Assembly (NCBI GenBank): GCA_046329515.1
Contig: JAXLUM010000002.1
Span: 1,039,113-1,103,112, forward strand
Source of the DNA: Chitinophagales bacterium
GTDB taxonomy: Bacteria; Bacteroidota; Bacteroidia; Chitinophagales; LD1
Length of the DNA stretch: 64,000 nucleotides
Reading direction: 5' to 3'
Both the position numbers and the translations under genes were made by a program. Each line of letters starts with the position of its first letter. Position 1 is the first letter of the stretch. Of this stretch, positions 1 to 45,835 are shown piece after piece. The notes below the pieces were generated by a model. It was not told the DNA's origin, ran no database searches, and saw only the letters and a program-made list of their open reading frames with translations.

Positions 1-1
1 G

Positions 2-583
2 ACAGGATACGCCTTTATAATAACTGACGGAGGCTCTGAGGACGCTACCTGTAAAATTGCCAAGCAAGCAGGAATACCGGTGCTTGAAAGACCTGGAATG
101 GGCAAGGGTGCTGGTGTTAAACAGGCTATACAGTATGCACACACTAATAATTTTACCCACTTAGTTACAATTGATTGCGATTTGACCTACCCGGTAGACC
201 GCATACACGACCTTGTTGAGGCCGCAAAAGACAAAGACATGGTAATTGCAGCGCGCAACATGCAAAAAATAAAATGGCTTAATAGGCAGGCTAACTATCT
301 TTTTACCTTTGCCATTAACCTGCTTTATGGAGGCTATTTTCATGACACACAATCCGGTATGCGCATTATTAAATTAGAAGCATTCAATGGCCTGGTGACA
401 GTTGACAACTTTGACATTGAAACGGAGTTAAGCTGCAAAGCACTGGCGCTAAAACTTAAGGTAGGCGAAATACAGGTTGGTTATTATGACAGAATCGGAG
501 AAAGCAAGGTTAGCATTACCGATGCCTTTGTGATTCTCTATCGCATATTCTATTGCCTCTTTACTTCGCCGAAAACGAAATAG
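2..583 (+). CDS. Family 2 glycosyltransferase, polyprenyl-phosphate sugar synthase (Dpm1)-like; 5' end cut by window edge
   Basis: The frame stays open from nt 2 (TGYAFIITDGGSEDAT...), so the DxGSxD-type motif lies upstream of the Met at nt 80. Also has DCDLTYP and a general GT-A/GT2 appearance. Confidence 0.7.
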   Translation, partial: TGYAFIITDGGSEDATCKIAKQAGIPVLERPGMGKGAGVKQAIQYAHTNNFTHLVTIDCDLTYPVDRIHDLVEAAKDKDMVIAARNMQKIKWLNRQANYLFTFAINLLYGGYFHDTQSGMRIIKLEAFNGLVTVDNFDIETELSCKALALKLKVGEIQVGYYDRIGESKVSITDAFVILYRIFYCLFTSPKTK

Positions 584-1226
584 GCAAAAAACCTTGAGGA
601 AGCGCTGTTGATTGCCCACCCAGCAATTCCTGCAAAAAGCGCCCGCACATAGGATGGTGTAATTCATCTTTGGAATAAAAGATTTCGGGCGCCGCAACTT
701 TGCCGGTTCTGCTTATAGCCCTTCGTAGCCGTTCAGAAGATTTAAAAAAAGAATACCTGTCAGATTTTAACAGATGTCGGTCATTCTCCAAGGCCGTAAG
801 TGAGTATCCGAAATTTTCGTCAAAAAAATCCGCCACCGTATTCCCGGGAACGGTGGAAGAAGCTGCTGTTTTAAACTGGAGGTAAACAAAAAATAAATCA
901 GAAACAGTAAGGGCTGCATAAACAGGCACAAAAGACGATTGATATTCCGCAGGGCCCATGAAAATATTTGTTTCAAACGAACGCTCGGACCAATCGATAT
1001 TGGTAAGGTAAACAAGTCCGCACTTGATACCGTTCTGCACAACTAGAAAATATAAATTTTGTTCCGATTGAATTTTTTTAAACCAAGCCATTTGTTGTTC
1101 GGCACTGATGTTTTCGGTGGTAAAAAGCCGGTTATTTACCTGTGGGGAGTTACGCCATTGGCGCACCAATTCAATGTCCCGTTCCGACAAAAGTTGTAAC
1201 TGAAGGCCTAATTGGCGGATATACAT
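561..1226 (-). CDS. GNAT-family N-acetyltransferase (PseH/WecD-like sugar N-acetyltransferase candidate)
   Basis: The N-terminal LSERDIELVRQWRNSPQV motif is typical of PseH-like GNATs. It is the last gene of the long minus-strand operon. Its 3' end overlaps the convergent GT2 by 23 nt. Confidence 0.55.
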   Translation of the reverse strand: MYIRQLGLQLQLLSERDIELVRQWRNSPQVNNRLFTTENISAEQQMAWFKKIQSEQNLYFLVVQNGIKCGLVYLTNIDWSERSFETNIFMGPAEYQSSFVPVYAALTVSDLFFVYLQFKTAASSTVPGNTVADFFDENFGYSLTALENDRHLLKSDRYSFFKSSERLRRAISRTGKVAAPEIFYSKDELHHPMCGRFLQELLGGQSTALPQGFLPISFSAK

Positions 1227-1227
1227 G

Positions 1228-2622
1228 CTATTTGAATTTTACCGAGCCGAACGCCAGCGGTAAGTAAAAACGAACAGTGTTTTTCAAAAAACACAGATTC
1301 TTAAATAATGGCAAGTACCCAACTAAGGTGCGCGGCGAAAAATAAAACTTGAAATAAGCTTTACGGTAAATACGATCCAATTGCGCTCGGCTAATATTGC
1401 CCGGAACATAGACAGGTAACTCCACCTCGCTGCGCATGTATTGTTGCCAAACGTCCGACGAAACTTTACCTTCCTGCACTGCTATTTTAAAAACCTCAAC
1501 ATCCGGCAAAGGAATCATTCGCGTAAAAAGAATGTTGAAGGGCCGCAACTTCATAGCTAGGTTTATAGTCGCCTCCATATCCTGTAAGGTTTCGCCGGGG
1601 TGGCCAAAAATGAAATTGGCCATAGTTTTAATTCCCAACTCGCGGCATAGATCAAACACCTCTTTATAGCGATGATTACTTATTTTTTTGCCCGTTAACG
1701 AGCGTACCTTTTCTGAACCACTCTCCACTCCAAAAGTTATTTTACTGCATCCAGCAGCCTTCATTTGTTTCAGTAATTCCGCATCTACTTTATCGGCACG
1801 CGTTTCGCAGCCCCACTCAAAGTAAAGGCCTTCGGCTTTAATAGCAGCGCACAATTCAAGTATGTGTCGCTTATTAACGGTAAAGGTGAGGTCCATAAAT
1901 TCCACCCATCTTACACCTAAATCTTTTACCAAAAAGCGAAGGCGGGCCATAATGTTTTCGATACTTAAATATCTGTAGTTCATTTGAAAGCCTGAGGCAC
2001 AAAAGTTACACTTATAGGGGCACCCCCTAGTAGTAAATAGCATCATGTAACGACTACTAGTACTGGCAGAGTAATACTTTCCAATGGGTAACAAATCGAA
2101 GGCTGGAATAGGCAGCAAGTTAATGTCACGAATGAAGGCGGGCTCATTTATGATTAGTTTTCCCTTCACATTAATAACTAAACCCTCTAAATCCGAAAGC
2201 ACTTCCTTTCCGGCTTTGATATGTTGGAGCAATCGTGTGAAAGAAAAATCGGCATCACCTCTAAAGCCGTAATCAGCATTTAAATGAGAGACTGCCTTAG
2301 GGTCGGCATTCACATAGTATCCTTCTAAAACAATTTTACTTGATGAAATTTCTTTAATAAATTGTATCAACTTATAAGCGTCAGGCAAGGTGGAAGGGAA
2401 AACGCTTATACAAACCACCGCTGGCCGATGTTGCTGAACCATTCGGGCAATTGTGGCATTATCCGTACCTTCTGCAGCGGGCTCAATAATTTTAACCATT
2501 AAACCTGCTGCGCGGGAAACTGCGGCCCATTCAGCAAGCTTTACATATGGCGAAACGCCCACAAGGTCGCGAGGATTAATAAAAAGGCAGTCTAATTGCT
2601 GCATATCAAAATTCATTAACAA
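1228..2622 (-). CDS. B12-binding (class B) radical SAM enzyme
   Basis: CPYKCNFC (CxxxCxxC 4Fe-4S/SAM motif) preceded by an N-terminal Rossmann-like region of about 150 aa, as in cobalamin-binding domains. An alternative ATG at 2604 would sit 1 nt after the upstream stop. Confidence 0.8.
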   Translation of the reverse strand: MLMNFDMQQLDCLFINPRDLVGVSPYVKLAEWAAVSRAAGLMVKIIEPAAEGTDNATIARMVQQHRPAVVCISVFPSTLPDAYKLIQFIKEISSSKIVLEGYYVNADPKAVSHLNADYGFRGDADFSFTRLLQHIKAGKEVLSDLEGLVINVKGKLIINEPAFIRDINLLPIPAFDLLPIGKYYSASTSSRYMMLFTTRGCPYKCNFCASGFQMNYRYLSIENIMARLRFLVKDLGVRWVEFMDLTFTVNKRHILELCAAIKAEGLYFEWGCETRADKVDAELLKQMKAAGCSKITFGVESGSEKVRSLTGKKISNHRYKEVFDLCRELGIKTMANFIFGHPGETLQDMEATINLAMKLRPFNILFTRMIPLPDVEVFKIAVQEGKVSSDVWQQYMRSEVELPVYVPGNISRAQLDRIYRKAYFKFYFSPRTLVGYLPLFKNLCFLKNTVRFYLPLAFGSVKFK

Positions 2623-3346
2623 TAATACTTCCGTCCAAAAGTGAGCGCATTAAACTCATTGTATCGTGCCCGTACGTTCTATTCATGCGCAAGAACAATT
2701 TAATCAATTTTAAGTTGCTGTATTTACTTTTATGGACTGCTGTCGAGCTAACTTTATAAAAAAGAGGTTCTTTCCCGCAGGCTTTTATCAATTCTATATC
2801 CAAATGTTCGGGAAGATAAAGCCTGTACCTTGTTGCCTGCCATAAACCCGACTTTATCAAACGGAAAGAAGAGCCTGAAGCCGCAAGCCTTCGGCCCGTA
2901 GTTCTTTGAATAAGGCGGTGAACTGCGCGGCTGCCTAATCTTCTCAAAGTCCCGTAGGCGGGCTTTTCGAAGCTGCCATAGGACAAAGAAACATGCTTGC
3001 CTGATTCAAAAAACGGAGCAATGAAAGAAGGTGGGGGGTTAAAATCATCATCTATGGTTAACAGGTATTGGCCCCTTGCCTTTTGCAGACCGACGATAGT
3101 GGCTGCATATTGACCCTTGTTGCCGACGAGATTTAAACACCGGAATGATCCGCCAGAGTTAGCATGCATTTCCGCTAAAAGCGGCCAGGTATTATCAACC
3201 GAGGCGTCATTGACAAGAATGAGTTCTGCCCCTTCGGGGATCGTTTTAAGTGAAGCAATGGCTTCTTTTACCCAATGCTGAATACGGTTACCTGCATTAT
3301 AAACTGGCACCACAACACTTAATACCGGGTTAACATTTAGGCTCAT
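2606..3346 (-). CDS. Family 2 glycosyltransferase
   Basis: VVVPVYNAG ... LVNDASVDNT ... TIDDD motifs. The likely start is the ATG at 3346, which overlaps the upstream TAA by 1 nt (TAATG). Confidence 0.8.
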   Translation of the reverse strand: MSLNVNPVLSVVVPVYNAGNRIQHWVKEAIASLKTIPEGAELILVNDASVDNTWPLLAEMHANSGGSFRCLNLVGNKGQYAATIVGLQKARGQYLLTIDDDFNPPPSFIAPFFESGKHVSLSYGSFEKPAYGTLRRLGSRAVHRLIQRTTGRRLAASGSSFRLIKSGLWQATRYRLYLPEHLDIELIKACGKEPLFYKVSSTAVHKSKYSNLKLIKLFLRMNRTYGHDTMSLMRSLLDGSIIVNEF

Positions 3347-4398
3347 TAAATTTCCAATAGGGGGGTACAACAAAGTTTGTCTACGGGGATAATTGCCGAG
3401 GCAGCCGAAAGCCCTACGCCAAAACCTGCCAAAAGCAGGGTACCCTGTAAATCCGACAGATTTGACCGCAAAGCTGTTATCATGGTTAATGGTATGGATG
3501 CAGAGCTGGTGTTGCCAAAATTAGTAAGCGAGTAGGGAAACTTTTCTTCGGGTATTTTGATTTTTTTACGAAGCGATTCGCAGATAATGCGATTCGCCTG
3601 ATGAAAAACAAAATAGTCTATTGCATCAGTAGGCAAGCTGGCAAAGGTCAAAAGGGACTCTATGTTTTTAACAACACTGCGAAGCGAGAATTCCAAAACC
3701 TTTTGCCCGTTCATATGCGCATGAAGCGAGGTCCTTCTTATTCCTTTTGCCTGACTTTCTTCTTCTAACGAAGATGTTGAGGCAGGCTTACGCGCCCCGC
3801 CCTCCGGTATTATAATAGCATCATAACCATCACCAAATGTTTCAAGGTTAAAGTAAACGCTTCCTGCCGAAGATGAGGCTTCTATTGCTGTGGCAGTACC
3901 AGCATCCCCAATAAGAGGGTAAGTAGATTTGTCGCTATAAGAAACAATGTGCGATGTTTCTCCACAAAGTAACAAGGCCTTTTGCCAACCATACAGTTGA
4001 AGGTATGCCTGAATAGCACTTAAACCATAAACAAAGCCCGAACAACCAAGGTGCAGATCAAATGCTGCACATGAATTCGAAAGCCCTAGCTGTTCTTGTA
4101 TGGCAGCAGCGCCAAAAGGTACAAGATAATCTGGCGTTTGGGTAACAAAAATCAGTAATTCAATTTCTGAAAATGACCAATCCAAATCTTTTACTAGTCT
4201 TTTTGCCGCAATAACACACATATCAGAAGCAGTTAGTCCTAGTGGCGCTTTGCGCAGTGATATTACTCCTACATGCTTTTGGAAATCCTTTCTTTCTGCT
4301 TCTGACGAAAAAGGGTACATAGTTGTATCAAACACTTGGGAAGGTACGGCGGCTGCCGCACCGATAATCTGTATTCCCTTTCCGCGCGCCAAAGGCAT
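3346..4398 (-). CDS. 3-oxoacyl-ACP synthase III (FabH/KASIII-like)
   Basis: Cys-His-Asn triad context: HLGCSGFVYGL, FHQANRII, FGNTSSASIP. TAATG overlap with the ACP gene. Confidence 0.85.
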   Translation of the reverse strand: MPLARGKGIQIIGAAAAVPSQVFDTTMYPFSSEAERKDFQKHVGVISLRKAPLGLTASDMCVIAAKRLVKDLDWSFSEIELLIFVTQTPDYLVPFGAAAIQEQLGLSNSCAAFDLHLGCSGFVYGLSAIQAYLQLYGWQKALLLCGETSHIVSYSDKSTYPLIGDAGTATAIEASSSAGSVYFNLETFGDGYDAIIIPEGGARKPASTSSLEEESQAKGIRRTSLHAHMNGQKVLEFSLRSVVKNIESLLTFASLPTDAIDYFVFHQANRIICESLRKKIKIPEEKFPYSLTNFGNTSSASIPLTMITALRSNLSDLQGTLLLAGFGVGLSAASAIIPVDKLCCTPLLEI

Positions 4399-4634
4399 TA
4401 GTCTGAAATTTTATGGTTAATAAGCGCTGTCAGATCGGCAATGGTTTCAGCCGTTTTCATCTCTTCCGGCGATATAAACACGCCAAACTCAAATTCAATC
4501 ATGGTAGTTACCACTACCGCGTTTATAGAGTTCCAGTTTAGCTTGTCCCGAAACTTTGAATCTGTTCTCAAAGAGTTTTTAGGTAAATCGTCAAACTCTA
4601 GTTCAATTTTTTCTATTAATTGCTCGCTATTCAT
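4398..4634 (-). CDS. Acyl carrier protein
   Basis: 78 aa and acidic, four-helix ACP size. The LNWNSINAV motif sits where the DSL phosphopantetheine serine is expected. Sandwiched between the adenylating enzyme and KASIII. Confidence 0.7.
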   Translation of the reverse strand: MNSEQLIEKIELEFDDLPKNSLRTDSKFRDKLNWNSINAVVVTTMIEFEFGVFISPEEMKTAETIADLTALINHKISD

Positions 4635-4635
4635 A

Positions 4636-6126
4636 TCATTCTTTTATGTCTAATCTTTCAGACTCCTTTAACCGCTTCAATAACTCCTCGCGTTTCATCT
4701 TATAGGAAATGGTAAGCGGTATTGAGTCTCTAAAAGGAAAAATGTAAATGCGCTCTATTTTTTCCGCAGCCTGTAAATTTTTATTACATTTAATTACCCA
4801 AGCTGCGGCCTCCTGTTTTTTAGATTCATCTACATTGTTTAACCATAATAAGGCGCTTAACTTTTGCTCCTCATCGCAACAAACAATAGCGCTATTTACC
4901 TCATTACATTCCATTAGTTTATGTTCAATAAGCTCAGGCAAGATATATAAGCCGTGGGGCCCTTTTAGGATGTTTTTTTTTCTGCCGCATATGGTCAGGT
5001 ACCCTTCAGAGTCTAAAGAAACAATATCGCCTGTTCTAAGATAACCATCTTGTGTGAGTAACTCGGTTGTTGCCGGCTCATTATTTTTATATCCTGTTGT
5101 GTTATTTGGAGCCTTGCATAGCAATTCGCCGTCTGCCTCAATCCGGATGTTTACTTCTTTGGCAACTTGGCCAACAGTACCTGTTTTTTTTGTACCGTAG
5201 TCGTTAAAACTAATTAGGGAAGCTGTTTCTGTTAACCCGTAAACCTCGTATATTATAATTCCCTTTTCCTCAAAGAAAGCACTAGTTGAAGGCGCTAGGG
5301 ATGCACCACCACATATAATAGCCTTTAAAAAACTCGGAAAAATCCCTGTCTCCAAAACCTGGTTCTGAATTTTACGCAATAGAAAGGGTGCCACTGCCAT
5401 GACATCTGGCTTGTAGAAGAGCAGAGATTCCAACTCATTTTGTAAAGGGCTTGGATAACAAATGGTGATACCATTTGCTTTGTAACTGTAATTCAATTTT
5501 CGTTCTCCACTAAAGGAAACGGGCAACAAACTTAGTGCTTTATTGCAATCTTGGAAAAAGCGGGCTTTGGAAAATACGTTAATAGCACTCAGCCAGTTAT
5601 TTCTGCTAAGAATGACACCCTTGGAAACACCCGCGCTACCAGATGTATATATTATTGTTTGTGTGCTTTCCCCTGGTAGTGTCGGCAACCTAAAGCTTTT
5701 CGTTAAAAAAAAAGAAGACTGATATAGGCTATTTAGACCATGTGTACTATGGATAAGAAACATCTCTGACTTAATAGCCGCACTCGTTACTATTTTGCCC
5801 ACTATTCGATAAACGAATTCGTAACCTATAAGAATTAGCTGTGGTTTGTTGTCAGAAATTACTATTCGCATCAAGTCCGCCTCTGCCAGAGGAGGTAAGG
5901 AAACATGCACACTTCCGGACCAATAGCACGCCGCATCAATGATATCCCAATCCGGCCCGTTGGGCAAAATAGTAAGAATGCAGGACACTTTCCTTTCCAT
6001 AAACCCTGCAGCCAAGGCCTGAGCATAAAAACGAAACTCATCGTAATGCATAGACTGTGGTTCTGCGTTACGGAAAAAACGCAGCATAGCACTTTGTCCA
6101 TATTCATTAGCGTAAAGCGTGTTCAT
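4636..6126 (-). CDS. AMP-dependent synthetase/ligase (fatty acyl-AMP or acyl-ACP ligase-like)
   Basis: Adenylation motifs IIYTSGSAGVSKGV, EVYGLTET, LRTGDIV and GRKKNILK. Confidence 0.85.
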   Translation of the reverse strand: MNTLYANEYGQSAMLRFFRNAEPQSMHYDEFRFYAQALAAGFMERKVSCILTILPNGPDWDIIDAACYWSGSVHVSLPPLAEADLMRIVISDNKPQLILIGYEFVYRIVGKIVTSAAIKSEMFLIHSTHGLNSLYQSSFFLTKSFRLPTLPGESTQTIIYTSGSAGVSKGVILSRNNWLSAINVFSKARFFQDCNKALSLLPVSFSGERKLNYSYKANGITICYPSPLQNELESLLFYKPDVMAVAPFLLRKIQNQVLETGIFPSFLKAIICGGASLAPSTSAFFEEKGIIIYEVYGLTETASLISFNDYGTKKTGTVGQVAKEVNIRIEADGELLCKAPNNTTGYKNNEPATTELLTQDGYLRTGDIVSLDSEGYLTICGRKKNILKGPHGLYILPELIEHKLMECNEVNSAIVCCDEEQKLSALLWLNNVDESKKQEAAAWVIKCNKNLQAAEKIERIYIFPFRDSIPLTISYKMKREELLKRLKESERLDIKE

Positions 6127-6128
6127 GT

Positions 6129-7856
6129 TTAATTACTATTTAAGTCAGGATGTCTTTTAATAATATAGTAACTATATGCTTGGTTTCCCCACAAAAATGG
6201 ATTTTTGTAAGAGCGCAGAACACTTTTATTATAAACAGGACAAAAGTTAATGGTGTCATTGTAAAAAAAAACATTCCAGCGGTGTAAAAAGGAAATATTG
6301 TAGGTGTTGTAGATAAATACAACCTGATCTGATTTTTCATTAAGACAATTCAAAATTTTATTTGAGTTAGCAGATCCGCATTTATTGGTCCAGTAATCTA
6401 TGTTGGACTTAAAATGCCTGGATATATAATGAAATGGAAGGACGTATTGATTTTCTTTATTTAGATTTGGAACACAAAATGGGCCTGTGTCTACAAAATA
6501 GGCAGTATATAGGTCAAATAAAATTATTTTATGATTAAAAGAATTTAGCTCCGCTATAAATTTTTGTTTCTGAATCTTGTCTGCCATAAGAAGTTCGCTC
6601 ATCTTTATACAAGCCTTTGCGCGATAAGCGGAGAAACAACATAGGGGAATGACCAATACTACTATATAGATGGACTTCCACTTTTTATTGCTCCAGGCGG
6701 CAAACGTATAAAGATTAAAAACTGTAAGAATAAGTAAATAAGGCCCCAATAAACGATCTTCCATCTTTGCAATTAAAGCAATCAGTAATATTAAAACCCC
6801 AGCTAGTAACCATAAAACTGATAATAATACTGTTTTACGCAAGCCCAACAAAATCGGGCCGAATGCCACAATAAGTACTAGATTTATCATGAAAAGAACA
6901 ATCTCCTTATATAACCAGTTAAAGCATGATTGTCTTCCTTGGTACCTGTCCGCGAATTGAATGAGGTTAAGTGTTTTAAAGTATAGAAACTGTTTGACTT
7001 CAAAATTGTGGGGTTGGGCGTAAAGGTTATGCAGCCAATCTTCTGTTAAAATATCGGCATCAAAATGATTCCAGGTAGTGATGGCTTCAAGCTTCAATTG
7101 TGTAGCAGGATCCTTAATGTCCGAAGAAATTGGCAAAATATAGGCATCTTGTATAAGAGATTCATAAAAAGAGAACTTTCCGAAGTCAATAGTTTCAGAT
7201 GTAGGTAAGGCCCATTTTAACACATTGGACATAAATAGCGGGAGGATTACTACGGGTAATAACCTCTGGATAATAGCCTTTTTGTTTTGGAACCATAACG
7301 CTACCAAAGTAAGAGAGGAAGCTAACAATAGAGTTATGACAGCGATTTCCAGACGGGTTAATAGGCCTAGTAATATACATAAACCTATATAAAGCGCAAA
7401 TGCGGGACCCAGTCTAAACACCATGAGCAAAGTAGCACTGCCAGTGAGCAGACACGCAGCAGTAGTGAAGGTGTTACGCATTATAAACTCCTGCATAAAA
7501 CCACAGAACACCAGAACTCCTGGAACCAGTTGCCACAGGCGCTTTGGTTTTAAAAAAACTAAAAAATTATATGTTACATAAACAAGATTGCAATAGGACA
7601 TTGCTAATAATAAGAAAAGGAAAAAACCATACCAAGATACACCGGGGACTGTCTTATAAAGGCCAATTAGAATAAAAGACAATCCTATAAAATAATCGGG
7701 ATTTAGGACATGTTTAGGCTCGTAGATGCCTGCCATCAAATTAGCCATTAAAGTATCGTCCAGCCACCCAACATACAAACCGGTGCGTAATGAGAAGATA
7801 AGCGAAAACAATATACACCCCCCCAAAAAATAGACGTACCTGAATTTTATTGGCAT
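6129..7856 (-). CDS. Large polytopic membrane protein with C-terminal soluble domain (GT-C-like architecture, function unknown)
   Basis: About 400 aa of repeated hydrophobic helices followed by a Cys/Asn-rich soluble tail of about 170 aa. AT-rich codon usage. Confidence 0.4.
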   Translation of the reverse strand: MPIKFRYVYFLGGCILFSLIFSLRTGLYVGWLDDTLMANLMAGIYEPKHVLNPDYFIGLSFILIGLYKTVPGVSWYGFFLFLLLAMSYCNLVYVTYNFLVFLKPKRLWQLVPGVLVFCGFMQEFIMRNTFTTAACLLTGSATLLMVFRLGPAFALYIGLCILLGLLTRLEIAVITLLLASSLTLVALWFQNKKAIIQRLLPVVILPLFMSNVLKWALPTSETIDFGKFSFYESLIQDAYILPISSDIKDPATQLKLEAITTWNHFDADILTEDWLHNLYAQPHNFEVKQFLYFKTLNLIQFADRYQGRQSCFNWLYKEIVLFMINLVLIVAFGPILLGLRKTVLLSVLWLLAGVLILLIALIAKMEDRLLGPYLLILTVFNLYTFAAWSNKKWKSIYIVVLVIPLCCFSAYRAKACIKMSELLMADKIQKQKFIAELNSFNHKIILFDLYTAYFVDTGPFCVPNLNKENQYVLPFHYISRHFKSNIDYWTNKCGSANSNKILNCLNEKSDQVVFIYNTYNISFLHRWNVFFYNDTINFCPVYNKSVLRSYKNPFLWGNQAYSYYIIKRHPDLNSN

Positions 7857-7875
7857 AAAGCCAAAATAGTAAGGT

Positions 7876-9204: not shown

Positions 9205-9421
9205 TTTGTTTATTGAATCTATCGTAAACTATATATACGGCCACAAAAAAAACCGCGCACAACCCCAGTTTCACTATGCGTATGACACCCTCGTTTTGAT
9301 GCTGTAGTATAAAGCGCAATAGAGAAAAAACAAGTGCCAATAAAACGGTGATGCGTAATACAGCATCCGCCAAATTCCTTTCGGCAACCTCACTAAATTC
9401 CCTCAGTAACTTTTTAAGCAT
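9197..9421 (-). CDS. Small two-helix membrane protein
   Basis: The internal ATG at 9421 lies 1 nt after the upstream stop. Two hydrophobic helices. Its end overlaps the CydA-like start by 8 nt. Confidence 0.4.
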   Translation of the reverse strand: MLKKLLREFSEVAERNLADAVLRITVLLALVFSLLRFILQHQNEGVIRIVKLGLCAVFFVAVYIVYDRFNKQSG

Positions 9422-9422
9422 T

Positions 9423-10427: not shown

Positions 10428-10459
10428 AGTCGTACAATAACCTTTCTTTCTAAGTAGCC

Positions 10460-13146: not shown

Positions 13147-13159
13147 GCACGCGGCACCC

Positions 13160-14818: not shown

Positions 14819-14865
14819 TTGCTAATTTTACAAAACACAAAAATTACGATACATTCATATCAACT

Positions 14866-20100: not shown

Positions 20101-20136
20101 AATACAATATTGCAGGCAGCCACTGAAGAAATAAGC

Positions 20137-20907: not shown

Positions 20908-20912
20908 GGCTG

Positions 20913-23139: not shown

Positions 23140-23148
23140 GGCGGCAAA

Positions 23149-24060: not shown

Positions 24061-25864
24061 CTAAAATTTTTCTGAACAAAGATTTTTTCTCCGGGGTCAA
24101 CGTCTTCTCCGGCTTTGGCTTAGGAGTTTCGGCTTTAGGCACGGGCTTCAGGTAACCTGCTTTCTGTTTCATTTGTTCAACTAAGCCCCCCAACTCCTCT
24201 TTAGTATAAACGGGCGCGGTATATGTTTTAGTACCTATTGAGGTTCCCATCTTAGGGCGCGCATAAATATCCTGCATAAAATTCTCGAAGCTGATAAGGA
24301 AGTTATCTTCCATTTTTATCATCTCCACTTCATTCTGCATTTCAGGCGTTTTGTAATGAAACACCATAGGCGGCTCTACGCTCATAATACCGCTGGTAAT
24401 AGCAATGCGTATTTTATCGGTTTTGTTGGGCGGCGAGTAATGCACCAGGCTTTGATTAAGCACCACCGCTTCTCCGGCTTTTACATTCATTGGCACGCAA
24501 TGGCCAATCATTAACTGCTCGTTTCCTTCAAAAAACATGGGCAGGGTGGGGCAGCGTATGGCTTTTACAATACCATACTGCGAACCCGGCAATACATACA
24601 GCGTTCCGTTTTGCTCGTCTGTATCAACGAGAGGCACCCATATATTAAGCGCTACATATTTATCCTCGTCCACAATAGTCCAATCCTGATGCACCGGCAA
24701 CTCTGAATACGCATCCGGTTGTTTGAACAGAAAGGCAGACCCGAAAGCGCGATAGTTTTGAAACATTTCTTCAAAATGCCCTTTGAATATTCCGGTGATA
24801 CTATCGCTGCAGGATTTTTTGTATTTGTAATCAGAAGAGTAACTGCTGGATTGAAAGCCGGCAGCTGAAAGGCCCGGATGTTTTTCCCAAAATAGTTTTG
24901 TCAGTTCTTCAATCTCCTGCGGTGTAAGGAACGGCACTTTTACAAAGCCCTGTTTATCGAACAAGTCCTGCAAGGCGGCGTCTTTAAAAAGTGCTTTAGG
25001 GTTTTCAATTTTTTTTGGCGGGGGACCGTACAGCTGCACTAACCATGCAGGGGTCAGCTTGGGGAAGTTATAATCCACCAGCCCTAGACTTTTGCCGATT
25101 TTGGGCCTGTCAAAAATATTCTCGCCAAACTGCTGAAAGTCCGTCATAAAGGAGTCGTCCTCTTCAAACACTTCCACTTTATTACCGAAATCCCTGTTCC
25201 AATAGCAAATGCGGAACTCCGAATCTTTATGCGTGAAATAGATATTAGTAACAATGCGAACGCCGCCCGAGAGGTTCGGCGGTGAATAATGGATAATACT
25301 CTGGTCAAAAATTACCGCCTGGCCCGCCTTTAGGTACAGCGGCTGCATGTAATCCAGTATTTCCTGTTGCACATCGTCGTACAAAGCAGGTATAGTGCTG
25401 CCTCTATAGGTAGGCGTAATACGGTGCGAGCCCGGTATTAAATACAATACGCCGTTAGTGTCGGTAAGGTCAATCAAAGGGCACCAGATATTAATGCCGG
25501 TAAAGCGCGTTTCATCCACCAACGTCATATCCTGATGGGTTTGCATGATAGAATCCTCGCCGGGCGACTTTACGATAAATGCGCCGAACATTAATTTGGT
25601 ATCTATCAGTTGCGTACTTAACCATGGGTCGGCAATGCGCTTTATCTCGTCATTAACGGTTTCGCGATAATGCTTATCCGAAGAAAAAGTGCTGGGGAAA
25701 AATCCTTTTTCATCTTTTGGATGCAGCCGGTGGTAAAGCTCATTTAGTTCCTTTACCTGTGCAGCATTATAAAAATCAACCACCACATAACCGTTTTTTT
25801 CAAACTGCTGCTGCATGGCCTCGTCGGCAAACACCCTTTTCATTTTATCAGGGAAAGAAAACAT
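24044..25864 (-). CDS. Tandem di-domain PhyH-family dioxygenase (paralog F1-F2)
   Basis: Two complete sets: QTHQDMTL/IIHYSPPN and PVHQDWTI/LVHYSPPN. Each follows its own (Q/D)KxGYVVV N-terminal motif. Confidence 0.8.
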   Translation of the reverse strand: MFSFPDKMKRVFADEAMQQQFEKNGYVVVDFYNAAQVKELNELYHRLHPKDEKGFFPSTFSSDKHYRETVNDEIKRIADPWLSTQLIDTKLMFGAFIVKSPGEDSIMQTHQDMTLVDETRFTGINIWCPLIDLTDTNGVLYLIPGSHRITPTYRGSTIPALYDDVQQEILDYMQPLYLKAGQAVIFDQSIIHYSPPNLSGGVRIVTNIYFTHKDSEFRICYWNRDFGNKVEVFEEDDSFMTDFQQFGENIFDRPKIGKSLGLVDYNFPKLTPAWLVQLYGPPPKKIENPKALFKDAALQDLFDKQGFVKVPFLTPQEIEELTKLFWEKHPGLSAAGFQSSSYSSDYKYKKSCSDSITGIFKGHFEEMFQNYRAFGSAFLFKQPDAYSELPVHQDWTIVDEDKYVALNIWVPLVDTDEQNGTLYVLPGSQYGIVKAIRCPTLPMFFEGNEQLMIGHCVPMNVKAGEAVVLNQSLVHYSPPNKTDKIRIAITSGIMSVEPPMVFHYKTPEMQNEVEMIKMEDNFLISFENFMQDIYARPKMGTSIGTKTYTAPVYTKEELGGLVEQMKQKAGYLKPVPKAETPKPKPEKTLTPEKKSLFRKILDAVGI

Positions 25865-25873
25865 AGCTGCGGG

Positions 25874-27838
25874 TTATGGATTATCAGAGGTTACGCGGTG
25901 TTTTATTTCGCGCAGTATATTAAGCGGAGTATACTTCTGAAAAAAGCTGCGGCCGTCTACGGTCGGGCCTTGTTGCACAACAGGGTCCTGTTGCACCAAC
26001 ACCTGTTCTTCAGGCTCCTCCAACATTGGTCGTTCGGCAGGCTGTTCTTCCACAACAGTAACCTCTTCCTGTATTATCTCGGGCGTGGGTTCCTGTTTTT
26101 GCGAACCGTCCATATTGTAATTAAAGAGCTTCGCCAAATGCTCGCACATTTCAATATTAAAGGTATTGCCGGCTTCCTTAATTTTTGCCAGCAGTTCGTC
26201 AGCGCTTATATACTGCACGCGGTTGTCAACCACCTCTAAAAGGTTTAAATCTTCCGGCAGTTTACCGCTGTTATACATTTCGGATAGGCGAGCGTTGTTG
26301 TAATGCGTAAAAAAGAAATCGTCTACTTCGTATTTGTTCAGCTTCTTACAATCGCTGCCGGGCACCAAATAATAATGCCGCAACGGCGCATCCTTCTGGG
26401 TAACCCCAAACCCCACGGCTAAGCGTACGCCGTCTGAAACATTAGGAGGCGAAGCGTGCACCGTACGGTTATCGAACACCAATGCTTGCCCCGGCTTCAT
26501 GGGTATTAGTTTCAGGTAAGGGAAAATAGAAAACACATGCGTATCGAGCGGGGTTTTAAACTGGGGCGCCGGTGAACAGCGGTGGTGATTGAAAAATTTA
26601 TGAGAGCCTACAATCACGCCCATTTCGCCGTTATACATATCGGTATCAACCAGTGCAGTCCAAATGGTGGCTGAGTTATAACCTTCATCTTCCTCGGTAA
26701 AACTCCAATCCTGGTGTGGCGGAACCACGCCAATGGGGTTCTTTTCTTTTACCACATAACTGCTGGTAAAAATTTTATAATCCGTGAAATACTTATCTGC
26801 CGGGCCGCTGATTACTGTTTTGATTTTATCCATTACTCCCATTACAAAATCGGGCTTCCTGTTATCCAGGCTAACGTGAAACCCATAATCGGGTATATGG
26901 TCGTTGTTTAGCGTATTGTAATAATCCTTCAGCTCTTTTACTTCCATTTCGTTCAGCATATCCAGCAAAACATAACCGTCGCGCTCGTATTGCTGTTGTA
27001 GTGCCGAGTCTTTAAATAAAGGCTTCATAATTTCACTTTTATATCGTTGCAAAAACAGGTTGAAGTGTTGTGCGCTTAAAGAGGTAAAGTCTTCCTTTAG
27101 TTTACGCGCAGGTTGTACAAAGGTAGGGCGTTCGCCATGGTTATCGTACTTCAGAAAAAAATCATCTTCCACTTCGTAACAATCAACATCTCCGGCTTCA
27201 TCTAAATGATAAAAAAAGAGTTGCGCCTGCTGCGGCACTAAGCCATAGGTAACTGCAATACGGTTATTGGCGGTACTGTTAAGATGCGAGGCGTGAACAA
27301 GCGCCTGATTAAACACAAATGCTTCGCCGGATTTCATCCGGAGGGTTTTCATTTGCTTCCGTATGTGCGGTTCAATATCCTTGATAACAACCGGCAAAGA
27401 AGGAGCGCGCAGGATAGGCGTTAAACGATGGCTGCCATCCAGCACCATTAGCGCTCCTTTATTTTCATCCACATCCTGTAAGGGCACCCAAATAGTGCAC
27501 GAGACGAATCGAGATTCGTCAACAATTGTCCAGTCCTGATGCACAGGCATAAAACCGCCCTGTCCACCGGGTTTGGTTAAAAAACTGGCTCCTAAAAATT
27601 TATGCGGCGTCAATAGCTTTCCGGCTTCAGGTGCAAACACCTGCTTTACCTCATTAAAAAGCTGTTGTTTTAAGGCAATGTCTTTAAAAAAAGTGGTGGA
27701 ATGAAAATATGGCGATTGGCTCTCGAAACCCGCGTATACGGCACGCAGCTTCTCTACCTCCTCTTCGGAAAGAAGCGGAACAATAACATAACCACGCGAA
27801 GCTAATTGCAGGTTAAGGGCCTCGTCCTTAAAAATCAT
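25874..27838 (-). CDS. Tandem di-domain PhyH-family dioxygenase (paralog G1-G2) with acidic Pro/Gln-rich tail
   Basis: PVHQDWTI/LVHASHLN and PPHQDWSF/TVHASPPN. C-terminal low-complexity segment EPTPEIIQEEVTVVEEQPAERPMLEEPEEQ. Confidence 0.8.
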   Translation of the reverse strand: MIFKDEALNLQLASRGYVIVPLLSEEEVEKLRAVYAGFESQSPYFHSTTFFKDIALKQQLFNEVKQVFAPEAGKLLTPHKFLGASFLTKPGGQGGFMPVHQDWTIVDESRFVSCTIWVPLQDVDENKGALMVLDGSHRLTPILRAPSLPVVIKDIEPHIRKQMKTLRMKSGEAFVFNQALVHASHLNSTANNRIAVTYGLVPQQAQLFFYHLDEAGDVDCYEVEDDFFLKYDNHGERPTFVQPARKLKEDFTSLSAQHFNLFLQRYKSEIMKPLFKDSALQQQYERDGYVLLDMLNEMEVKELKDYYNTLNNDHIPDYGFHVSLDNRKPDFVMGVMDKIKTVISGPADKYFTDYKIFTSSYVVKEKNPIGVVPPHQDWSFTEEDEGYNSATIWTALVDTDMYNGEMGVIVGSHKFFNHHRCSPAPQFKTPLDTHVFSIFPYLKLIPMKPGQALVFDNRTVHASPPNVSDGVRLAVGFGVTQKDAPLRHYYLVPGSDCKKLNKYEVDDFFFTHYNNARLSEMYNSGKLPEDLNLLEVVDNRVQYISADELLAKIKEAGNTFNIEMCEHLAKLFNYNMDGSQKQEPTPEIIQEEVTVVEEQPAERPMLEEPEEQVLVQQDPVVQQGPTVDGRSFFQKYTPLNILREIKHRVTSDNP

Positions 27839-27849
27839 ACACCCTTATT

Positions 27850-28767
27850 TTATGCAGAAATTAAACCAAGTATCCTTTTCAAAAAACCTTTCTCTTCATC
27901 AAACCTCGGCGCTTTTAATCCGGCTTCAAATTGCTGCACTGTAAGCGGATGCTGCTGATAAGGAATAGTGTTGACAGTTTTAGTGCCCACAGCCTTCATC
28001 CAGGGATTAAACTGCATGTAAAATTCGTGATCTACCTCCCACACTTTTATTTCAGTAGGCTGAGACGGATCTAAGTGATAGTGCACGGAAGGCACCTCGC
28101 CAGGAATTAAAATCAACTGTATAGCCAAGCGTAAATCCGGGGTGCGATTGGGACGGGTGTAGTGCACGATACTGTCATCCAGTATTACTGCGTTGCCCGC
28201 TTTGGTATCAATAGGCACCATATATTTACCAATCAACTCCTGCTTAATGTTATCCAACTCCCAGGGTATCATGGGCCCACGGAACTCGCCAAAACGCTTA
28301 TGACTGCCGGGTATTACTTCCAGTGTGCCGTTCTCGCGAGTGCTGTTTACCAAGGGGCACCAAATTGAAACGGAAGTATAGCGGCGCTCCTCCACAAAGG
28401 CCCAGTTCTGGTGTATGGGAACTTCGCCGGCATCGGTCTTTTTGCGGATGTAGTTTGCGATGATAGGTTTATAGTCGGCAAGGTAGTGTTTAACCTGTTC
28501 GGCAAACTCCTCCGTAATGATATCGAATACCTTCTTCTTGTATTCTGGGTTCTTATCAATAAACGTAAAGTCGTAAGTAATATCCGGCACATCCAGCGAG
28601 CTGATATCTTCCGGCTTTATCTGGCCACCGCTTTCGGGTAATGTTTCGAAGAACATTTTTTGCAGGCGCTGCACTTTATCAGCAACGATAAACGGCACCT
28701 GCACATAACCGTCTTTATCAAATTTTTTCTGGAGTTCAGCGGAGTTAAAAACCTTTCTCATACACAC
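27850..28767 (-). CDS. PhyH-family dioxygenase-like protein with H-x-N in place of H-x-D (paralog H)
   Basis: PIHQNWAF: the codons at 28405-28413 read CAC CAG AAC on the minus strand. NGTLEVIPGSH, IVHYTRPN and LRLA are retained. Confidence 0.7.
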   Translation of the reverse strand: MCMRKVFNSAELQKKFDKDGYVQVPFIVADKVQRLQKMFFETLPESGGQIKPEDISSLDVPDITYDFTFIDKNPEYKKKVFDIITEEFAEQVKHYLADYKPIIANYIRKKTDAGEVPIHQNWAFVEERRYTSVSIWCPLVNSTRENGTLEVIPGSHKRFGEFRGPMIPWELDNIKQELIGKYMVPIDTKAGNAVILDDSIVHYTRPNRTPDLRLAIQLILIPGEVPSVHYHLDPSQPTEIKVWEVDHEFYMQFNPWMKAVGTKTVNTIPYQQHPLTVQQFEAGLKAPRFDEEKGFLKRILGLISA

Positions 28768-28772
28768 ACATT

Positions 28773-29591
28773 TTAAATGTAATCGGCAATCTCATCTTCA
28801 ACTCTTCTAAAATACCACAAACCCGCGACAAACAAAAACAGCACAGGCAGCGCCGAGTAGAGATATTGAAGCGAGGGGCCCTGCCCGCCCACCAGCGCAA
28901 ACCTATAACCTTCTACCACAAATGCCAAGGGGTTGAAATACATAACATATGCAAGATTTGGAGGCAAAACGGTGCTTGGATAAAAAACAGGGGTTAACCA
29001 GATGGCAAAGTTGATGATGTAGGGAACAAAATGCTGAAAATCGCGGTAGCGGTAAGTAAGTGCGCTTATCCAGATACCTGCCGTTAATCCGCACAAAATA
29101 TGAAGCGCTAAAAACATGGGGAAATAAAAAATACTGATGCCGGGGTGCAAACGATAAAAGAACATAGCGCCTACAATAAGCACAAAGGAAAGCAGGAAGT
29201 CAACCCCTGCGGACAACACCTTGGCTAAAGGCAGAATGAGCTTAGGGAAGTATATTTTTTTCAGGATACTTTGCGATTCGATTAGGGAGTTACCGGCGCC
29301 AAAAGCCAGGTTGGTAAAGTAAGTCCAGCCAATCATGCCGGTTAAAGCGAAAATAGGATAGGGCAACGGGCGGGTATCTACACTAATAAGCCTGCCGAAA
29401 AAGAAAGTGAATATGATAACGGAAGGAAGGGGTTGCAGCAATAACCAGAACACGCCAAACAGGGTTTGGGCATATTTTATTTTGAGGTCGCGTTTTGCAA
29501 AGGTGATTACCAGATTTTTATAGCGAAAAACCTTCCTGAAATACTCTCGCGCGCCATCTCTTTCTTTGGTTATTACATGCGTATTTTCCAA
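28773..29591 (-). CDS. wzm: ABC-2 type polysaccharide exporter permease (Wzm-like)
   Basis: 272 aa with six TM helices. N-terminal RDLKIKYAQTLFGVFW motif typical of ABC-2/Wzm permeases. Confidence 0.8.
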   Translation of the reverse strand: MENTHVITKERDGAREYFRKVFRYKNLVITFAKRDLKIKYAQTLFGVFWLLLQPLPSVIIFTFFFGRLISVDTRPLPYPIFALTGMIGWTYFTNLAFGAGNSLIESQSILKKIYFPKLILPLAKVLSAGVDFLLSFVLIVGAMFFYRLHPGISIFYFPMFLALHILCGLTAGIWISALTYRYRDFQHFVPYIINFAIWLTPVFYPSTVLPPNLAYVMYFNPLAFVVEGYRFALVGGQGPSLQYLYSALPVLFLFVAGLWYFRRVEDEIADYI

Positions 29592-29686
29592 TACAGGAGA
29601 TTTACGGGCTAAGTTAAAAAAAACACCTCTAATAGGCGCCTTTTGTTTATACTCGCTTAACCTTTGCGGACGGTAAGCTACAGGGT

Positions 29687-30859
29687 ATGAAAGTTACAGA
29701 ATTAACCGATGTTATGATACCTCACCATATCCCGACCTTTACGGGACGAGAGTTTGATGTACTGAAAGAAGAATCGAAGAACGACCCCTCTTTTTTTGCA
29801 GCCAAAAAATTCGAGAAAAAATGTGCCGCCTTTTTTGCCGAGCAGTTTAAGGGCAGTAAGTTGTTATTTACAAGCAGCTGCGCACGTGCGCTCGAGCTTT
29901 CGGTAATGCTGGCGGGCATTAAACCGGGCGATGAAGTAATAATGCCCTCCTACACTTTTGTGGCCAGTGCCAACGCGGTAGCGCAATTTGGCGGGGTGCC
30001 GGTTTTTATAGATATGCGCCCGGACACGCTGAATATTAACGAAGAACTGATAGAGGCGGCTATAACCCCGCGCACCAAAGCCATTATGCCGGTGCATTAT
30101 GGCGGAGTAGGCTGCGAGATGGATGCTATTGTGCAGATAGCAGAAAAACACGGTCTGTACATAATTGAAGATGCTGCGCACGGCATACAGGCCGCATACA
30201 AAAACCGGCCACTTGGCAGTATTGGCCATTTGAACTGTTTGAGTTTTGACAGTATGAAAAATATTTCGTGCGGCGAGGGAGGACTGCTGATAATTACCCG
30301 GCCAGAGTTATTTGCACGGGCCGAAATTTGCTACGACCAGGGTACCGATCGCTTCCAATTTAATCGTGGAGAGGTTCCTTTCTTTCAATGGGTGGACGTT
30401 GGCAGCAATTTTAAAATGCACGATTACAATGCCGGCATACTTTGGGCGCAACTACAGGAAGCGGAGCGTATAACCCAAAAAAGGCTGGACGACTGGAATT
30501 ACTACTACCTGGCCCTTTTGCCTTTAAATAAGGAAGGGGAATTTGAGCTGCCTAGGGTGCCAGCACAATGCCAGCACAATGCGCACATCTTTTTTGTGCG
30601 GTTGCGTGATGAGAATGCTCGTAATCAACTGTTAAATTATTTGCGTGAAAGAAAAATATTTGCCACGCACCACTATTTACCTTTGCACCGTAGTGTTTAT
30701 GGCAAAATTGTCGGCCGCTTTAATGGCGAAGACCGCTACACTACTTCCGAAAGTTTACGTTTACTGCGCCTGCCATTATATTATGACATTGACCGTGCTG
30801 CGCAAAAACGAGTGATAGAAACTATTGCAGAATTTTGGGACAATAAACTGGCGAACTAA
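29687..30859 (+). CDS. DegT/DnrJ/EryC1-family sugar aminotransferase (WecE-like dTDP-4-keto-6-deoxyhexose 4-aminotransferase)
   Basis: PLP-lysine context LSFDSMKNISCGEGG. The MPSYTFVASANA and IIEDAAHG motifs resemble WecE. Confidence 0.8.
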   Translation: MKVTELTDVMIPHHIPTFTGREFDVLKEESKNDPSFFAAKKFEKKCAAFFAEQFKGSKLLFTSSCARALELSVMLAGIKPGDEVIMPSYTFVASANAVAQFGGVPVFIDMRPDTLNINEELIEAAITPRTKAIMPVHYGGVGCEMDAIVQIAEKHGLYIIEDAAHGIQAAYKNRPLGSIGHLNCLSFDSMKNISCGEGGLLIITRPELFARAEICYDQGTDRFQFNRGEVPFFQWVDVGSNFKMHDYNAGILWAQLQEAERITQKRLDDWNYYYLALLPLNKEGEFELPRVPAQCQHNAHIFFVRLRDENARNQLLNYLRERKIFATHHYLPLHRSVYGKIVGRFNGEDRYTTSESLRLLRLPLYYDIDRAAQKRVIETIAEFWDNKLAN

Positions 30860-45804: not shown

Positions 45805-45807
45805 CTG

Positions 45808-45835
45808 AAGGCGATACGCAAGTATCGCCTTTTTG
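45808..45835 (+). terminator. Rho-independent terminator after tRNA-Asn
   Basis: AAGGCGATAC-GCAA-GTATCGCCTT stem-loop followed by TTT. Confidence 0.7.

Follow-up and report, generated by a model that had tools for sequence, protein, structure and literature searches.

A conserved array of PhyH oxygenases beside a Wzm/Wzt exporter in uncultured freshwater Bacteroidota: a candidate locus for oxidatively tailored surface glycans

What kind of product is made by a gene cluster that encodes ten PhyH-type oxygenase domains together with both subunits of an exporter? This question is raised by a locus at positions 1 to 30,859 of a 64,000-nucleotide stretch of DNA (the window, positions 1,039,113 to 1,103,112 of contig JAXLUM010000002.1). 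The 1.23-Mb contig belongs to a metagenome-assembled genome (MAG) of an uncultured freshwater member of Chitinophagales, Bacteroidota, whose proteins carry NCBI numbers of the form MFN82875xx. An initial annotation, made from the letters of the window alone, described the locus as a glycan or glycolipid export locus with an enzyme set that matches no characterised pathway. The open reading frame (ORF) map reproduces its block coordinates, and Pfam bears out its gene set, including Wzm, Wzt, two family 2 glycosyltransferases (GT2), a DegT aminotransferase, a GNAT acyltransferase, radical S-adenosylmethionine (SAM) enzymes, and haem genes. The absence of a characterised counterpart also holds, since full-text literature on PhyH/Wzm/Wzt, 2-oxoglutarate (2OG)/O-antigen, and WelO5/polysaccharide systems gave no characterised cluster and annotation-level mentions only. 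The reading preferred here, to which a probability of roughly one half is assigned, is that of a modular locus, dependent on an ATP-binding cassette (ABC) transporter, for a surface glycan of O-antigen, capsule, or teichoic-acid type, in which a lipid-linked glycan is oxidatively tailored at the membrane.

The central block of the locus lies on the minus strand at 20913-29591 and encodes, by ascending coordinate, Wzt, a methyltransferase, a PhyH protein, two double-PhyH proteins, a further PhyH protein, and Wzm. The first PhyH protein, P_e (23149-24060), is the last in the conserved order of the array described below. It is followed by the 606-residue PPf (24044-25864) and by PPg (25874-27838), both with two Pfam PhyH domains and the latter with the conserved C-terminal motif RSFFQKYTPLNILREIK, and by Ph (27850-28767). 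Four accessory PhyH genes, P_a to P_d, occupy 16464-17339, 17329-18360, 18357-19253, and 19240-20100 on the same strand, and their H-x-D...H...R motif is intact. The ten PhyH domains and one WelO5-like enzyme make up the 11 iron- and 2OG-dependent (Fe/2OG) oxygenase domains that had been counted from the letters. The PhyH domains are old paralogs with a mutual identity of 19-33%. Nine of the ten retain H-x-D...H...R, and the column of the 2OG-binding arginine is kept in all ten and in essentially all 526 PhyH domains aligned from related loci. Ph retains H-x-N...H...R, with His-Gln-Asn in place of His-x-Asp. Asparagine stands at the aspartate position (as HQN or HEN) in 62 of 62 alignable orthologs, with the second histidine and the 2OG arginine retained. 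To our knowledge there is no characterised precedent for a His-x-Asn PhyH protein. Judged by this motif, Ph may serve as a scaffold, or it may be an enzyme whose chemistry is altered.

The array is widespread. A scan of 185,579 genomes, one per species (GTDB set), found 165 stretches that encode a relative of the double-PhyH protein, and a protein search gave about 230 uncharacterised relatives. The best 80 of the 165 stretches are all from Bacteroidota MAGs, with no isolate among them, and belong to Chitinophagales, Flavobacteriales, Saprospiraceae, and Crocinitomicaceae. Their habitats, judged from isolate names, are mostly lakes and activated sludge or wastewater. The sole named cultured carrier encountered is Thermomonas carbonis (protein P0067). 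ORFs were clustered over 82 loci, with PhyH proteins cut into aligned domains and the neighbourhood set at no more than 10 kb; individual loci and contigs are referred to below by L numbers. Six single-copy orthogroups recur among the 82 loci: Ph in 63, the N-terminal domain of PPg in 22 (at a strict threshold) and its C-terminal domain in 70, the N-terminal domain of PPf in 82 and its C-terminal domain in 77, and P_e in 50. The order Ph, PPg, PPf, P_e is fixed in almost all loci. The full core usually reads wzm-Ph-PPg-PPf-P_e-methyltransferase-wzt, with Wzm directly upstream of the oxygenases and the methyltransferase and Wzt downstream. The number of PhyH domains per locus has a median of six and a maximum of 14. 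P_a to P_d each have an ortholog in one of the 82 loci, and all four are also found on L089, a close relative outside that set. Extra PhyH genes are non-orthologous between lineages, a pattern expected of serotype-like diversification.

Around the core, the most frequent families are Wzm (50 of 82 loci), the methyltransferase (41), Wzt (32), GT2 (24), UbiA (21), DegT (19), and B12-dependent radical SAM enzymes (18), followed by GNAT and KASIII (15 each), WelO5-like enzymes (12), and acyl carrier protein (ACP, 8). A module consisting of a sulfotransferase or epimerase, ACP, KASIII, GT2, and GNAT recurs directly upstream of wzm. The accessory pool consists mostly of glycan genes, namely GT2, GT4, GT8, GT87, UbiA with DprE1/DprE2-like genes, DegT, sugar epimerases, sulfotransferase, SGNH, and YdjC. 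L089 is syntenic with the window over all 12 genes that it covers, from LPG_synthase_TM and cytochrome c through Wzt and the methyltransferase. In addition, L086, a metagenome contig obtained separately from the genome scan and whose query protein is named Xanthomonadales by NCBI, carries orthologs of Ph, the C-terminal domain of PPg, both domains of PPf, and P_e. Its Ph, at 13742-14638, is 57% identical to that of the window and retains HQN. Its neighbours are Wzt, methyltransferase, GT2, GT4, GT87, polyprenyl synthase, radical SAM, and WelO5-like genes. These recurrence data resolve the locus into a conserved core (wzm, six PhyH domains, methyltransferase, and wzt) and recurrent accessory modules. 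The view that the blocks of the locus are co-conserved thus holds in so far as the core and most modules recur together, but they do not form one uniform unit and the accessories are interchangeable. From this comparison the adenylase, one membrane protein (mem572, below), and the four accessory PhyH genes appear essentially lineage-specific.

Some relatives depart from the common layout. L088, a 1.3-Mb JGI contig, encodes at 10001-12766 a 921-residue protein that fuses three PhyH domains. The gene adjoins four more PhyH domains, Wzm, Wzt, and a GT9 heptosyltransferase, with no methyltransferase and no other glycosyltransferase. The PhyH domains of L088 are at most 31% identical to the six core groups and are non-orthologous to them, and the contig represents a very compact version of the system. 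Extra oxygenases of the Asp_Arg_Hydrox, Cupin_8/JmjC, FA_desaturase, and FA_hydroxylase families occur in L005, L064, L072, L054/L060, and L092. Radical SAM enzymes are as a class oxygen-sensitive, yet these relatives, rich in oxygen-dependent enzymes, encode them.

The exporter encoded at the two ends of the core block is of a glycan type. Wzm (28773-29591, minus strand) is an ABC-2 permease (Pfam ABC2_membrane, 1.2e-15). Wzt (20913-22322, minus strand; Pfam ABC_tran) is an ABC ATPase with a likely start at 22208, whose closest relatives in the PDB are Aquifex aeolicus Wzt (5.6e-50), TarH/TagH, and Mycobacterium tuberculosis RfbE. It carries a C-terminal extension of about 150 residues that is present in 32 of 32 related Wzt proteins, where identity is 22% as against 43% in the nucleotide-binding domain. 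Between Wzt and the oxygenases lies a SAM-dependent methyltransferase (22195-23139, minus strand). Its best match in the PDB is 3bus (1.5e-21), named there simply 'Methyltransferase' and which we take to be RebM, followed by MitM and a D-glucose O-methyltransferase; cyclopropane fatty acid synthases score much lower. In the 41 loci that encode it, the methyltransferase has a median identity of 59%, and several orthologs open with a hydrophobic or amphipathic helix. The 128-base overlap of the Wzt and methyltransferase genes is only apparent and stems from a TTG start placed too far upstream. Relatives of 432 and 291 residues, respectively, indicate that Wzt and cytochrome c probably begin downstream of the start of the longest ORF.

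By sequence, the nearest solved relatives of the PhyH domains are SnoN, PHYHD1, MysH, EvdO2, and SnoK. In an AlphaFold2 model of PPf (pLDDT 91), both domains adopt a jelly-roll fold, residues 574-594 form a disordered linker, and a helix at 596-603 ends the chain. In Foldseek the model matched MysH, EvdO2, SnoN, and SnoK best, then SyrB2, TlxIJ, AndA, and HygX, and the top matches are exclusively PhyH-type oxygenases. SnoN and SnoK (nogalamycin), EvdO2 and HygX (orthosomycins and hygromycin B), and KanJ act on carbohydrate C-H bonds. They share the fold and the facial triad with the PhyH proteins of the window. Unlike the arrays described here, enzymes of the SnoN/EvdO2 type are soluble single proteins that act on small molecules, and identity to them is 14-20%. 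The PhyH proteins have no signal peptides, and their C-termini consist of a disordered linker and then a short amphipathic helix that is basic and conserved. Together with the N-terminal helices of several methyltransferases, these tails may indicate tailoring at the cytoplasmic membrane surface. This arrangement suggests that oxidation takes place at the cytoplasmic face on a lipid-linked intermediate before export.

Is the exported product a glycan? The composition of the accessory pool, the relatives of Wzt, GT2, methyltransferase, and GNAT, and a precedent in Xanthomonas argue for it. In Xanthomonas, the lipopolysaccharide (LPS) cassettes between etfA and metB (the BXO8 and Xoc types, and XAC3591-wzm of X. 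citri) are annotated with wzm, wzt, PhyH-family, and flippase-like genes. The same cassettes are also annotated with UbiA, FAD-binding or short-chain dehydrogenase/reductase genes, and a methyltransferase. They hold one or two PhyH genes, by annotation only, compared to 10 or 11 here, and among sequences attributed to Xanthomonadales orthology to the core was compared for L086 only. The glycan-export reading of the initial annotation stands as regards a glycan-type exporter in Bacteroidota, but the product may be either a polysaccharide or a lipid-linked mono- or oligosaccharide, as the window encodes no polymerising glycosyltransferase or initiator.

Several observations weigh against the surface-glycan reading. 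No initiating phosphoglycosyltransferase or polymerising glycosyltransferase was found in 1-30859 or in many of the related loci, and some loci hold the array with no wzm or wzt within 10 kb. Pfam Wzt_C has no match in the Wzt of the window and a weak one in a single relative, L091. The similarity of the PhyH proteins to sugar-tailoring enzymes is weak (8e-6; TM-score about 0.55) and no better than that to MysH, SyrB2, and AndA. The hydrophobic moment of the PhyH tails exceeds that of internal segments, but the C-termini of DegT and Wzm behave similarly, so the signal is non-specific. The carriers of the best 80 loci are uncultured. Finally, the PhyH core is constant while the sugar genes vary, which fits a target common to all loci that could be a lipid.

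This last point leads to an unlikely alternative, in which the substrate of the array is a membrane lipid or the isoprenoid carrier itself and the ABC-2 transporter flips a polyhydroxylated, methoxylated lipid. Such a target would agree with the retention of the core irrespective of the surrounding sugar genes and with the amphipathic tails of the PhyH proteins. Relatives also encode FA_desaturase, FA_hydroxylase, and Asp_Arg_Hydrox proteins, the last of which we take to be LpxO-like. Moreover, L086 encodes a polyprenyl synthase as well as an amino oxidase that resembles phytoene desaturase, and UbiA occurs in 21 loci. On the other hand, the nearest solved relatives of the methyltransferase act on sugars and small molecules, the accessory pool is made up mostly of sugar enzymes, and the Xanthomonas counterparts lie in an O-antigen cassette.

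Further sugar and acyl genes lie in the left part of the locus. The minus operon at 561-11536, for which 12 genes had been stated, holds 11: GNAT, radical SAM, GT2, KASIII, ACP, adenylase, a membrane protein (mem575), a CydA-like protein, an 88-residue transmembrane protein, LPG_synthase_TM, and cytochrome c. The GNAT N-acyltransferase (561-1226) is PseH-like (Pfam Acetyltransf_3; NCBIfam PseH 1.2e-15, under the family cut-off). It is followed by the first radical SAM enzyme (1228-2622; motif CPYKCNFC) and by a small GT2 (2606-3373) whose best PDB matches, ArnC (1.4e-15) and GtrB/sll0501, are polyprenyl-phosphate sugar transferases. Three adjacent genes at 3346-6126 form an acyl cassette, as identified by Pfam domains: the FabH-like condensing enzyme KASIII (3346-4398; ACP_syn_III and ACP_syn_III_C), the ACP (4398-4634; PP-binding, 25 bits against a cut-off of 20.8), and an AMP-binding adenylase or ligase (4636-6126; 1.8e-37). 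None of the 82 loci encodes a homolog of the adenylase at 10 kb or less from the PhyH array. At the left edge, a second GT2 (1-583, plus strand; Glycos_transf_2) is cut by the end of the window. At the right end, a DegT/WecE-type sugar aminotransferase (29687-30859, plus strand; DegT_DnrJ_EryC1, 1.6e-85) is divergent to Wzm. The second radical SAM enzyme (14866-16467, plus strand; B12-binding 1.5e-20 and Radical_SAM; motif CPYRCSFC) completes the plus block at 11494-16467, after the membrane proteins mem550 and mem572. Both radical SAM proteins have an N-terminal B12-binding domain (PF02310) and a radical SAM core (PF04055) with CxxxCxxC, which places them in class B. Against NCBIfam neither reached an equivalog threshold, with HpnJ, PhpK, KedN5, and AprD4 far below threshold.

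From the gene content, the motifs, the orthogroup order, and the co-occurrence observed, we infer a pathway whose substrate, order of steps, membrane association, and chemical outcomes would be as follows. The DegT aminotransferases would yield an amino-deoxy sugar nucleotide, and the PseH-like GNAT would N-acylate the amino sugar with an acyl group supplied by the adenylase, ACP, and KASIII. The ArnC/GtrB-like GT2 would then place the sugar on polyprenyl phosphate. The PhyH enzymes would oxidise distinct C-H positions of the sugar or of its N-acyl substituent, by hydroxylation and possibly by epimerisation or cyclisation of the SnoN/EvdO kind. The two class-B radical SAM enzymes would modify the lipid-linked glycan, probably by C-methylation, while the RebM-like methyltransferase would O-methylate the glycan and may cap the chain. 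Wzm and Wzt would export the tailored product, and mem550/mem575, mem572, LPG_synthase_TM, and cytochrome c/CydA-like would act later, on the periplasmic side. The C-methylated, hydroxylated, and acylated glycoconjugate envisaged by the initial annotation is a reasonable expectation on these grounds.

Nevertheless, the sole glycosyltransferases in the window are two small GT2 proteins of the ArnC/GtrB/DPM1-like kind. Since no initiating or polymerising glycosyltransferase is encoded there, a lipid-linked sugar-donor pathway remains a serious competitor, even if a doubtful one. In such a pathway, a tailored polyprenyl-phosphate monosaccharide, made by the ArnC-like GT2 or, in relatives, by UbiA, would be flipped by Wzm/Wzt and transferred in the periplasm to LPS, another glycan, or a protein by the unclassified membrane proteins. 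Many relatives have just a single GT2 of this kind, or else UbiA, in some cases along with GT4, and an LPG_synthase_TM flippase-like gene is part of the locus. However, the Wzt extension of about 150 residues, found in every related Wzt and with one weak Wzt_C match, is typical of polymer-recognising Wzt proteins. Known monosaccharide-lipid flippases are small GtrA or ArnE/F proteins and not ABC-2 transporters, and the genes for a glycan backbone may sit elsewhere in the genome.

The membrane proteins that would act as periplasmic transferases in the sugar-donor pathway had been labelled GT-C-like, a label for which Pfam, NCBIfam, and profile-versus-PDB searches show no sequence link. They are mem575 (6129-7856, minus strand; about nine transmembrane segments), mem550 (11494-13146, plus strand; about ten transmembrane segments and a C-terminal domain; uncharacterised family), and mem572 (13100-14818, plus strand), an orphan with a counterpart in L089 only. 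None of the three has a Pfam, NCBIfam, or PDB match. A 46-sequence profile of the mem550 family likewise matched no PDB entry and no family in Pfam, and an AlphaFold2 model made for the GT-C question from a three-sequence alignment only had a pLDDT of 39. The G+C fraction of mem575 is 0.36, compared to 0.43-0.45 in the rest of the locus; low G+C is frequent in horizontally exchanged membrane genes of glycan loci. An exhaustive HMMER search of 1.84 billion sequences recovered 71 representatives related to mem550, and a word-index search recovered one. In the 82 loci, neither BLAST nor jackhmmer gave a counterpart of these membrane proteins. By hhalign, which is more sensitive, mem550 is related to two families of about 560 residues that occur in about ten PhyH loci (f23, 98.9%; f27, 94.5%), mem575 is related to the first of these (98.1%), and mem572 is unrelated to mem550 and mem575. 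On the three readable contigs with mem550 relatives, the neighbours are combinations of Wzm, Wzt, PhyH, B12-dependent radical SAM, methyltransferase, UbiA, and GT2. In L090, an ortholog of the second radical SAM enzyme (74% identical) adjoins the mem550 relative. The context of the family further includes GT2, a weak PMT_2 protein, and DprE1/DprE2-like genes (L005 and L017), whose adjacency to mem550-family genes counts in favour of a sugar donor. As to a GT-C relationship, this context is at most suggestive.

A different view arises from the tailoring enzymes. B12-dependent radical SAM, PhyH, and WelO5-like enzymes, a KASIII-ACP-adenylase cassette, and a methyltransferase are typical of natural-product tailoring, and each of the nearest solved relatives of the PhyH domains is a natural-product enzyme. 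A secondary-metabolite cluster could accordingly be proposed, in which an ABC-2 pump of the DrrAB kind exports a small glycosylated or acylated product (an aminoglycoside-like compound or a glycolipid antibiotic). This is very improbable, as the window encodes no polyketide synthase (PKS), non-ribosomal peptide synthetase (NRPS), cyclitol synthase, or precursor of a ribosomally synthesised and post-translationally modified peptide (RiPP). In addition, the nearest relatives of Wzt export O-antigen or teichoic acid, the flanks are hypervariable in the manner of serotype loci, and the Xanthomonas homologs map to an LPS cassette. A RiPP or PKS/NRPS product as such is ruled out, because no scaffold gene is present in the window.

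The WelO5-family enzyme (20110-20907, plus strand; Pfam WelO5, 1.3e-31) is a further oxygenase of the locus. Aligned to WelO5, the window protein shows His-Cys-Glu in place of the His-Val-Gly of the halogenase. With glutamate at the position of Gly166, it is predicted to be of the hydroxylase type, and its ortholog in L089 is also His-Cys-Glu. In contrast, the halogenase signature of WelO5, His-Cys-Gly/Ala followed by Asn-x-Phe, is found in 11 of 15 family members from related loci, and in L086. The loci with WelO5-like genes are L007, L017, L028, L029, L031, L032, L051, L052, L074, L080, L084, and L086. Going by these residues, sister loci may make halogenated surface products. For the oxygenases of the window itself, halogenation is ruled out by the carboxylate or asparagine in all PhyH domains and by the glutamate of the WelO5-like protein. 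The carrier-protein-independent halogenases WelO5 and AmbO5 share the Pfam family with this enzyme, and its relatives in sister loci keep their H-x-G-N-x-F motif. The window copy differs from them in the glutamate at Gly166, in its glycan-locus context, and in a substrate that is not an indole alkaloid.

A haem module lies at 7876-11536 on the minus strand. It consists of a CydA-like haem-binding membrane protein (7876-9204; Pfam Cyt_bd_oxida_I, 3.6e-58), an 88-residue protein with two transmembrane segments by crude prediction (9197-9463), an LPG_synthase_TM 'flippase-like' membrane protein (9423-10427; PF03706, 3.2e-20), and a dihaem cytochrome c (10460-11536; two CxxCH motifs, Cytochrome_CBB3), the start of which probably lies between 11536 and about 11335. 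The 88-residue protein lies between LPG_synthase_TM and the CydA-like gene. The nearest relatives of the CydA-like protein among 5.8 billion proteins are 27-28% identical to it. In alignment with 6rko_A and 7ose_A, the equivalents of Escherichia coli H186, M393, and E445 are kept, the equivalent of H19 being read from the N-terminus outside the alignment, and the equivalents of E99 and E107 are non-acidic. No CydB-like ORF was found in the locus. Lacking CydB and the E99/E107 equivalents, the protein is not a standard bd oxidase. Described CydA variants that lack quinol-site or proton-channel residues use alternative electron donors, and by the criteria that can be checked in its sequence the CydA-like protein seems to fit none of the described classes. 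It resembles cytochrome bd members without proton-channel glutamates in the equivalents of the b558 and b595 ligands; unlike them, it has neither CydB nor a fused haem c domain and lies inside a glycan operon. In the PDB, the cytochrome c is closest to cytochrome subunits from membrane-bound periplasmic dehydrogenases for glucose, alcohol, and fructose, and no dehydrogenase subunit is present.

Does the haem module belong to the same system? It is quite unlikely that the locus is a mosaic, with the module, and perhaps the left operon, serving unrelated respiration or lipid metabolism beside a glycan locus. In its favour, neither BLAST nor jackhmmer found homologs of the CydA-like protein, cytochrome c, or LPG_synthase_TM within 10 kb of the PhyH array in the 82 loci, where the adenylase is likewise absent, and the CydA-like protein is an orphan. 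A metagenome scan with the cytochrome c alignment also returned generic distant cytochromes only, none of them linked to PhyH or Wzt. Against it, the haem genes lie inside the operon with junctions from a 41-base overlap to a 32-base gap, and the CydA-like protein lacks the features of a respiratory oxidase named above. Furthermore, the module recurs in two other contigs, L092 and L089, and only there. L092, which is distant, holds LPG_synthase_TM, cytochrome c, a 68-residue transmembrane protein, the CydA-like protein, and a 554-residue membrane protein in nearly the order of the window. Identities to the window are 55% for cytochrome c, 27% for LPG_synthase_TM, 25% for mem550, and 23% for the CydA-like protein. 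The haem genes of L092 adjoin the mem550 relative, Wzt, and PhyH genes.

A more specific form of the surface-glycan reading may be advanced tentatively. The six colinear PhyH paralogs could form a membrane-tethered multi-oxygenase machine for multi-site C-H oxidation of a polyprenyl-linked glycan or lipid before export, with halogenation in sister loci and with the cytochrome c/CydA-like chain coupled to it in the present locus. Fe/2OG-dependent C-H oxidation is well known for small natural products. For bacterial envelope glycolipids, only isolated cases are known to us, namely KdoO, acting on the Kdo of LPS, and LpxO, acting on lipid A.

How does such a locus compare to known export systems? 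Among ABC-dependent O-antigen loci, comparators are wzm-wzt-wbdD of E. coli O8/O9a and the rfb cluster of Vibrio cholerae O1 with its perosamine synthase, ACP, and acyl ligase. The window locus shares with them Wzm and an extended Wzt, a methyltransferase between these, a DegT protein, and an ACP/ligase route to an N-acyl group. It differs from them in having no polymerising glycosyltransferase or WecA-type initiator and a Wzt extension that is at most a putative carbohydrate-binding domain, and we know of no oxygenase array in the O8/O9a or O1 systems. The Arn, Gtr, and decaprenyl-phosphate-arabinose systems likewise combine an ArnC/GtrB-like GT2, a flippase-like protein, and large polytopic membrane proteins. 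Unlike these, the window has no GtrA, ArnE/F, or detectable GT-C protein, and an ABC-2 exporter and oxygenases are additional.

The locus ends within the window on the right and reaches beyond it on the left. The leftward continuation predicted by the initial annotation is found on the Logan contig L001, which has an identical GNAT and, to the left of it, a full GT2 (222 amino acids), a second DegT aminotransferase (362 amino acids), and a divergent unknown gene. Within blocks, neighbouring genes overlap by up to 47 bases or are separated by up to 47 bases. In promoter and terminator scans of the window, counts were no different from those in shuffled sequence; such scans are expected to be uninformative in Bacteroidota. 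The right boundary lies at about 30.9 kb, beyond which unrelated genes follow (GlpD-like, rhodanese, cargo of the type IX secretion system (T9SS), CtaA, MFS, GcvT, and H+-PPase).

Some of the flanking genes are of interest in their own right. Just right of the locus, 33798-36337 encodes two proteins with the T9SS sorting domain Por_Secre_tail, one of which also has a BD-FAE esterase domain. A tRNA-Asn gene occupies 45731-45805. The stretch after it is low in G+C (0.375 at 46-48 kb), and a caspase-domain protein (Peptidase_C14) is encoded there at 47265-48740. The region 45731-48740 may be an integrated island or contain a defence gene. Further to the right, 55912-60387 encodes a 1491-residue alpha-2-macroglobulin-like protein with MG2, A2M, and TED domains.

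Taken by its components, the locus consists of known families and a known kind of exporter. What is new is the six-paralog array with its His-x-Asn member and its link to wzm/wzt, together with the 71-member membrane family and the haem module. The His-x-Asn PhyH proteins, the membrane family, and the orphan CydA-like protein represent new protein families. The six-oxygenase cassette between wzm and wzt points to an unseen class of surface-glycan chemistry, which has probably been missed because its carriers are uncultured. If the multi-oxygenase reading is true, the array would be the first tailoring system of the Fe/2OG kind to act on lipid-linked bacterial surface glycans. Abundant freshwater Bacteroidota would then carry heavily oxidised cell-surface polymers, halogenated in relatives, and the variable accessory oxygenases would add serotype-like diversity relevant to their interactions with phages and grazers.

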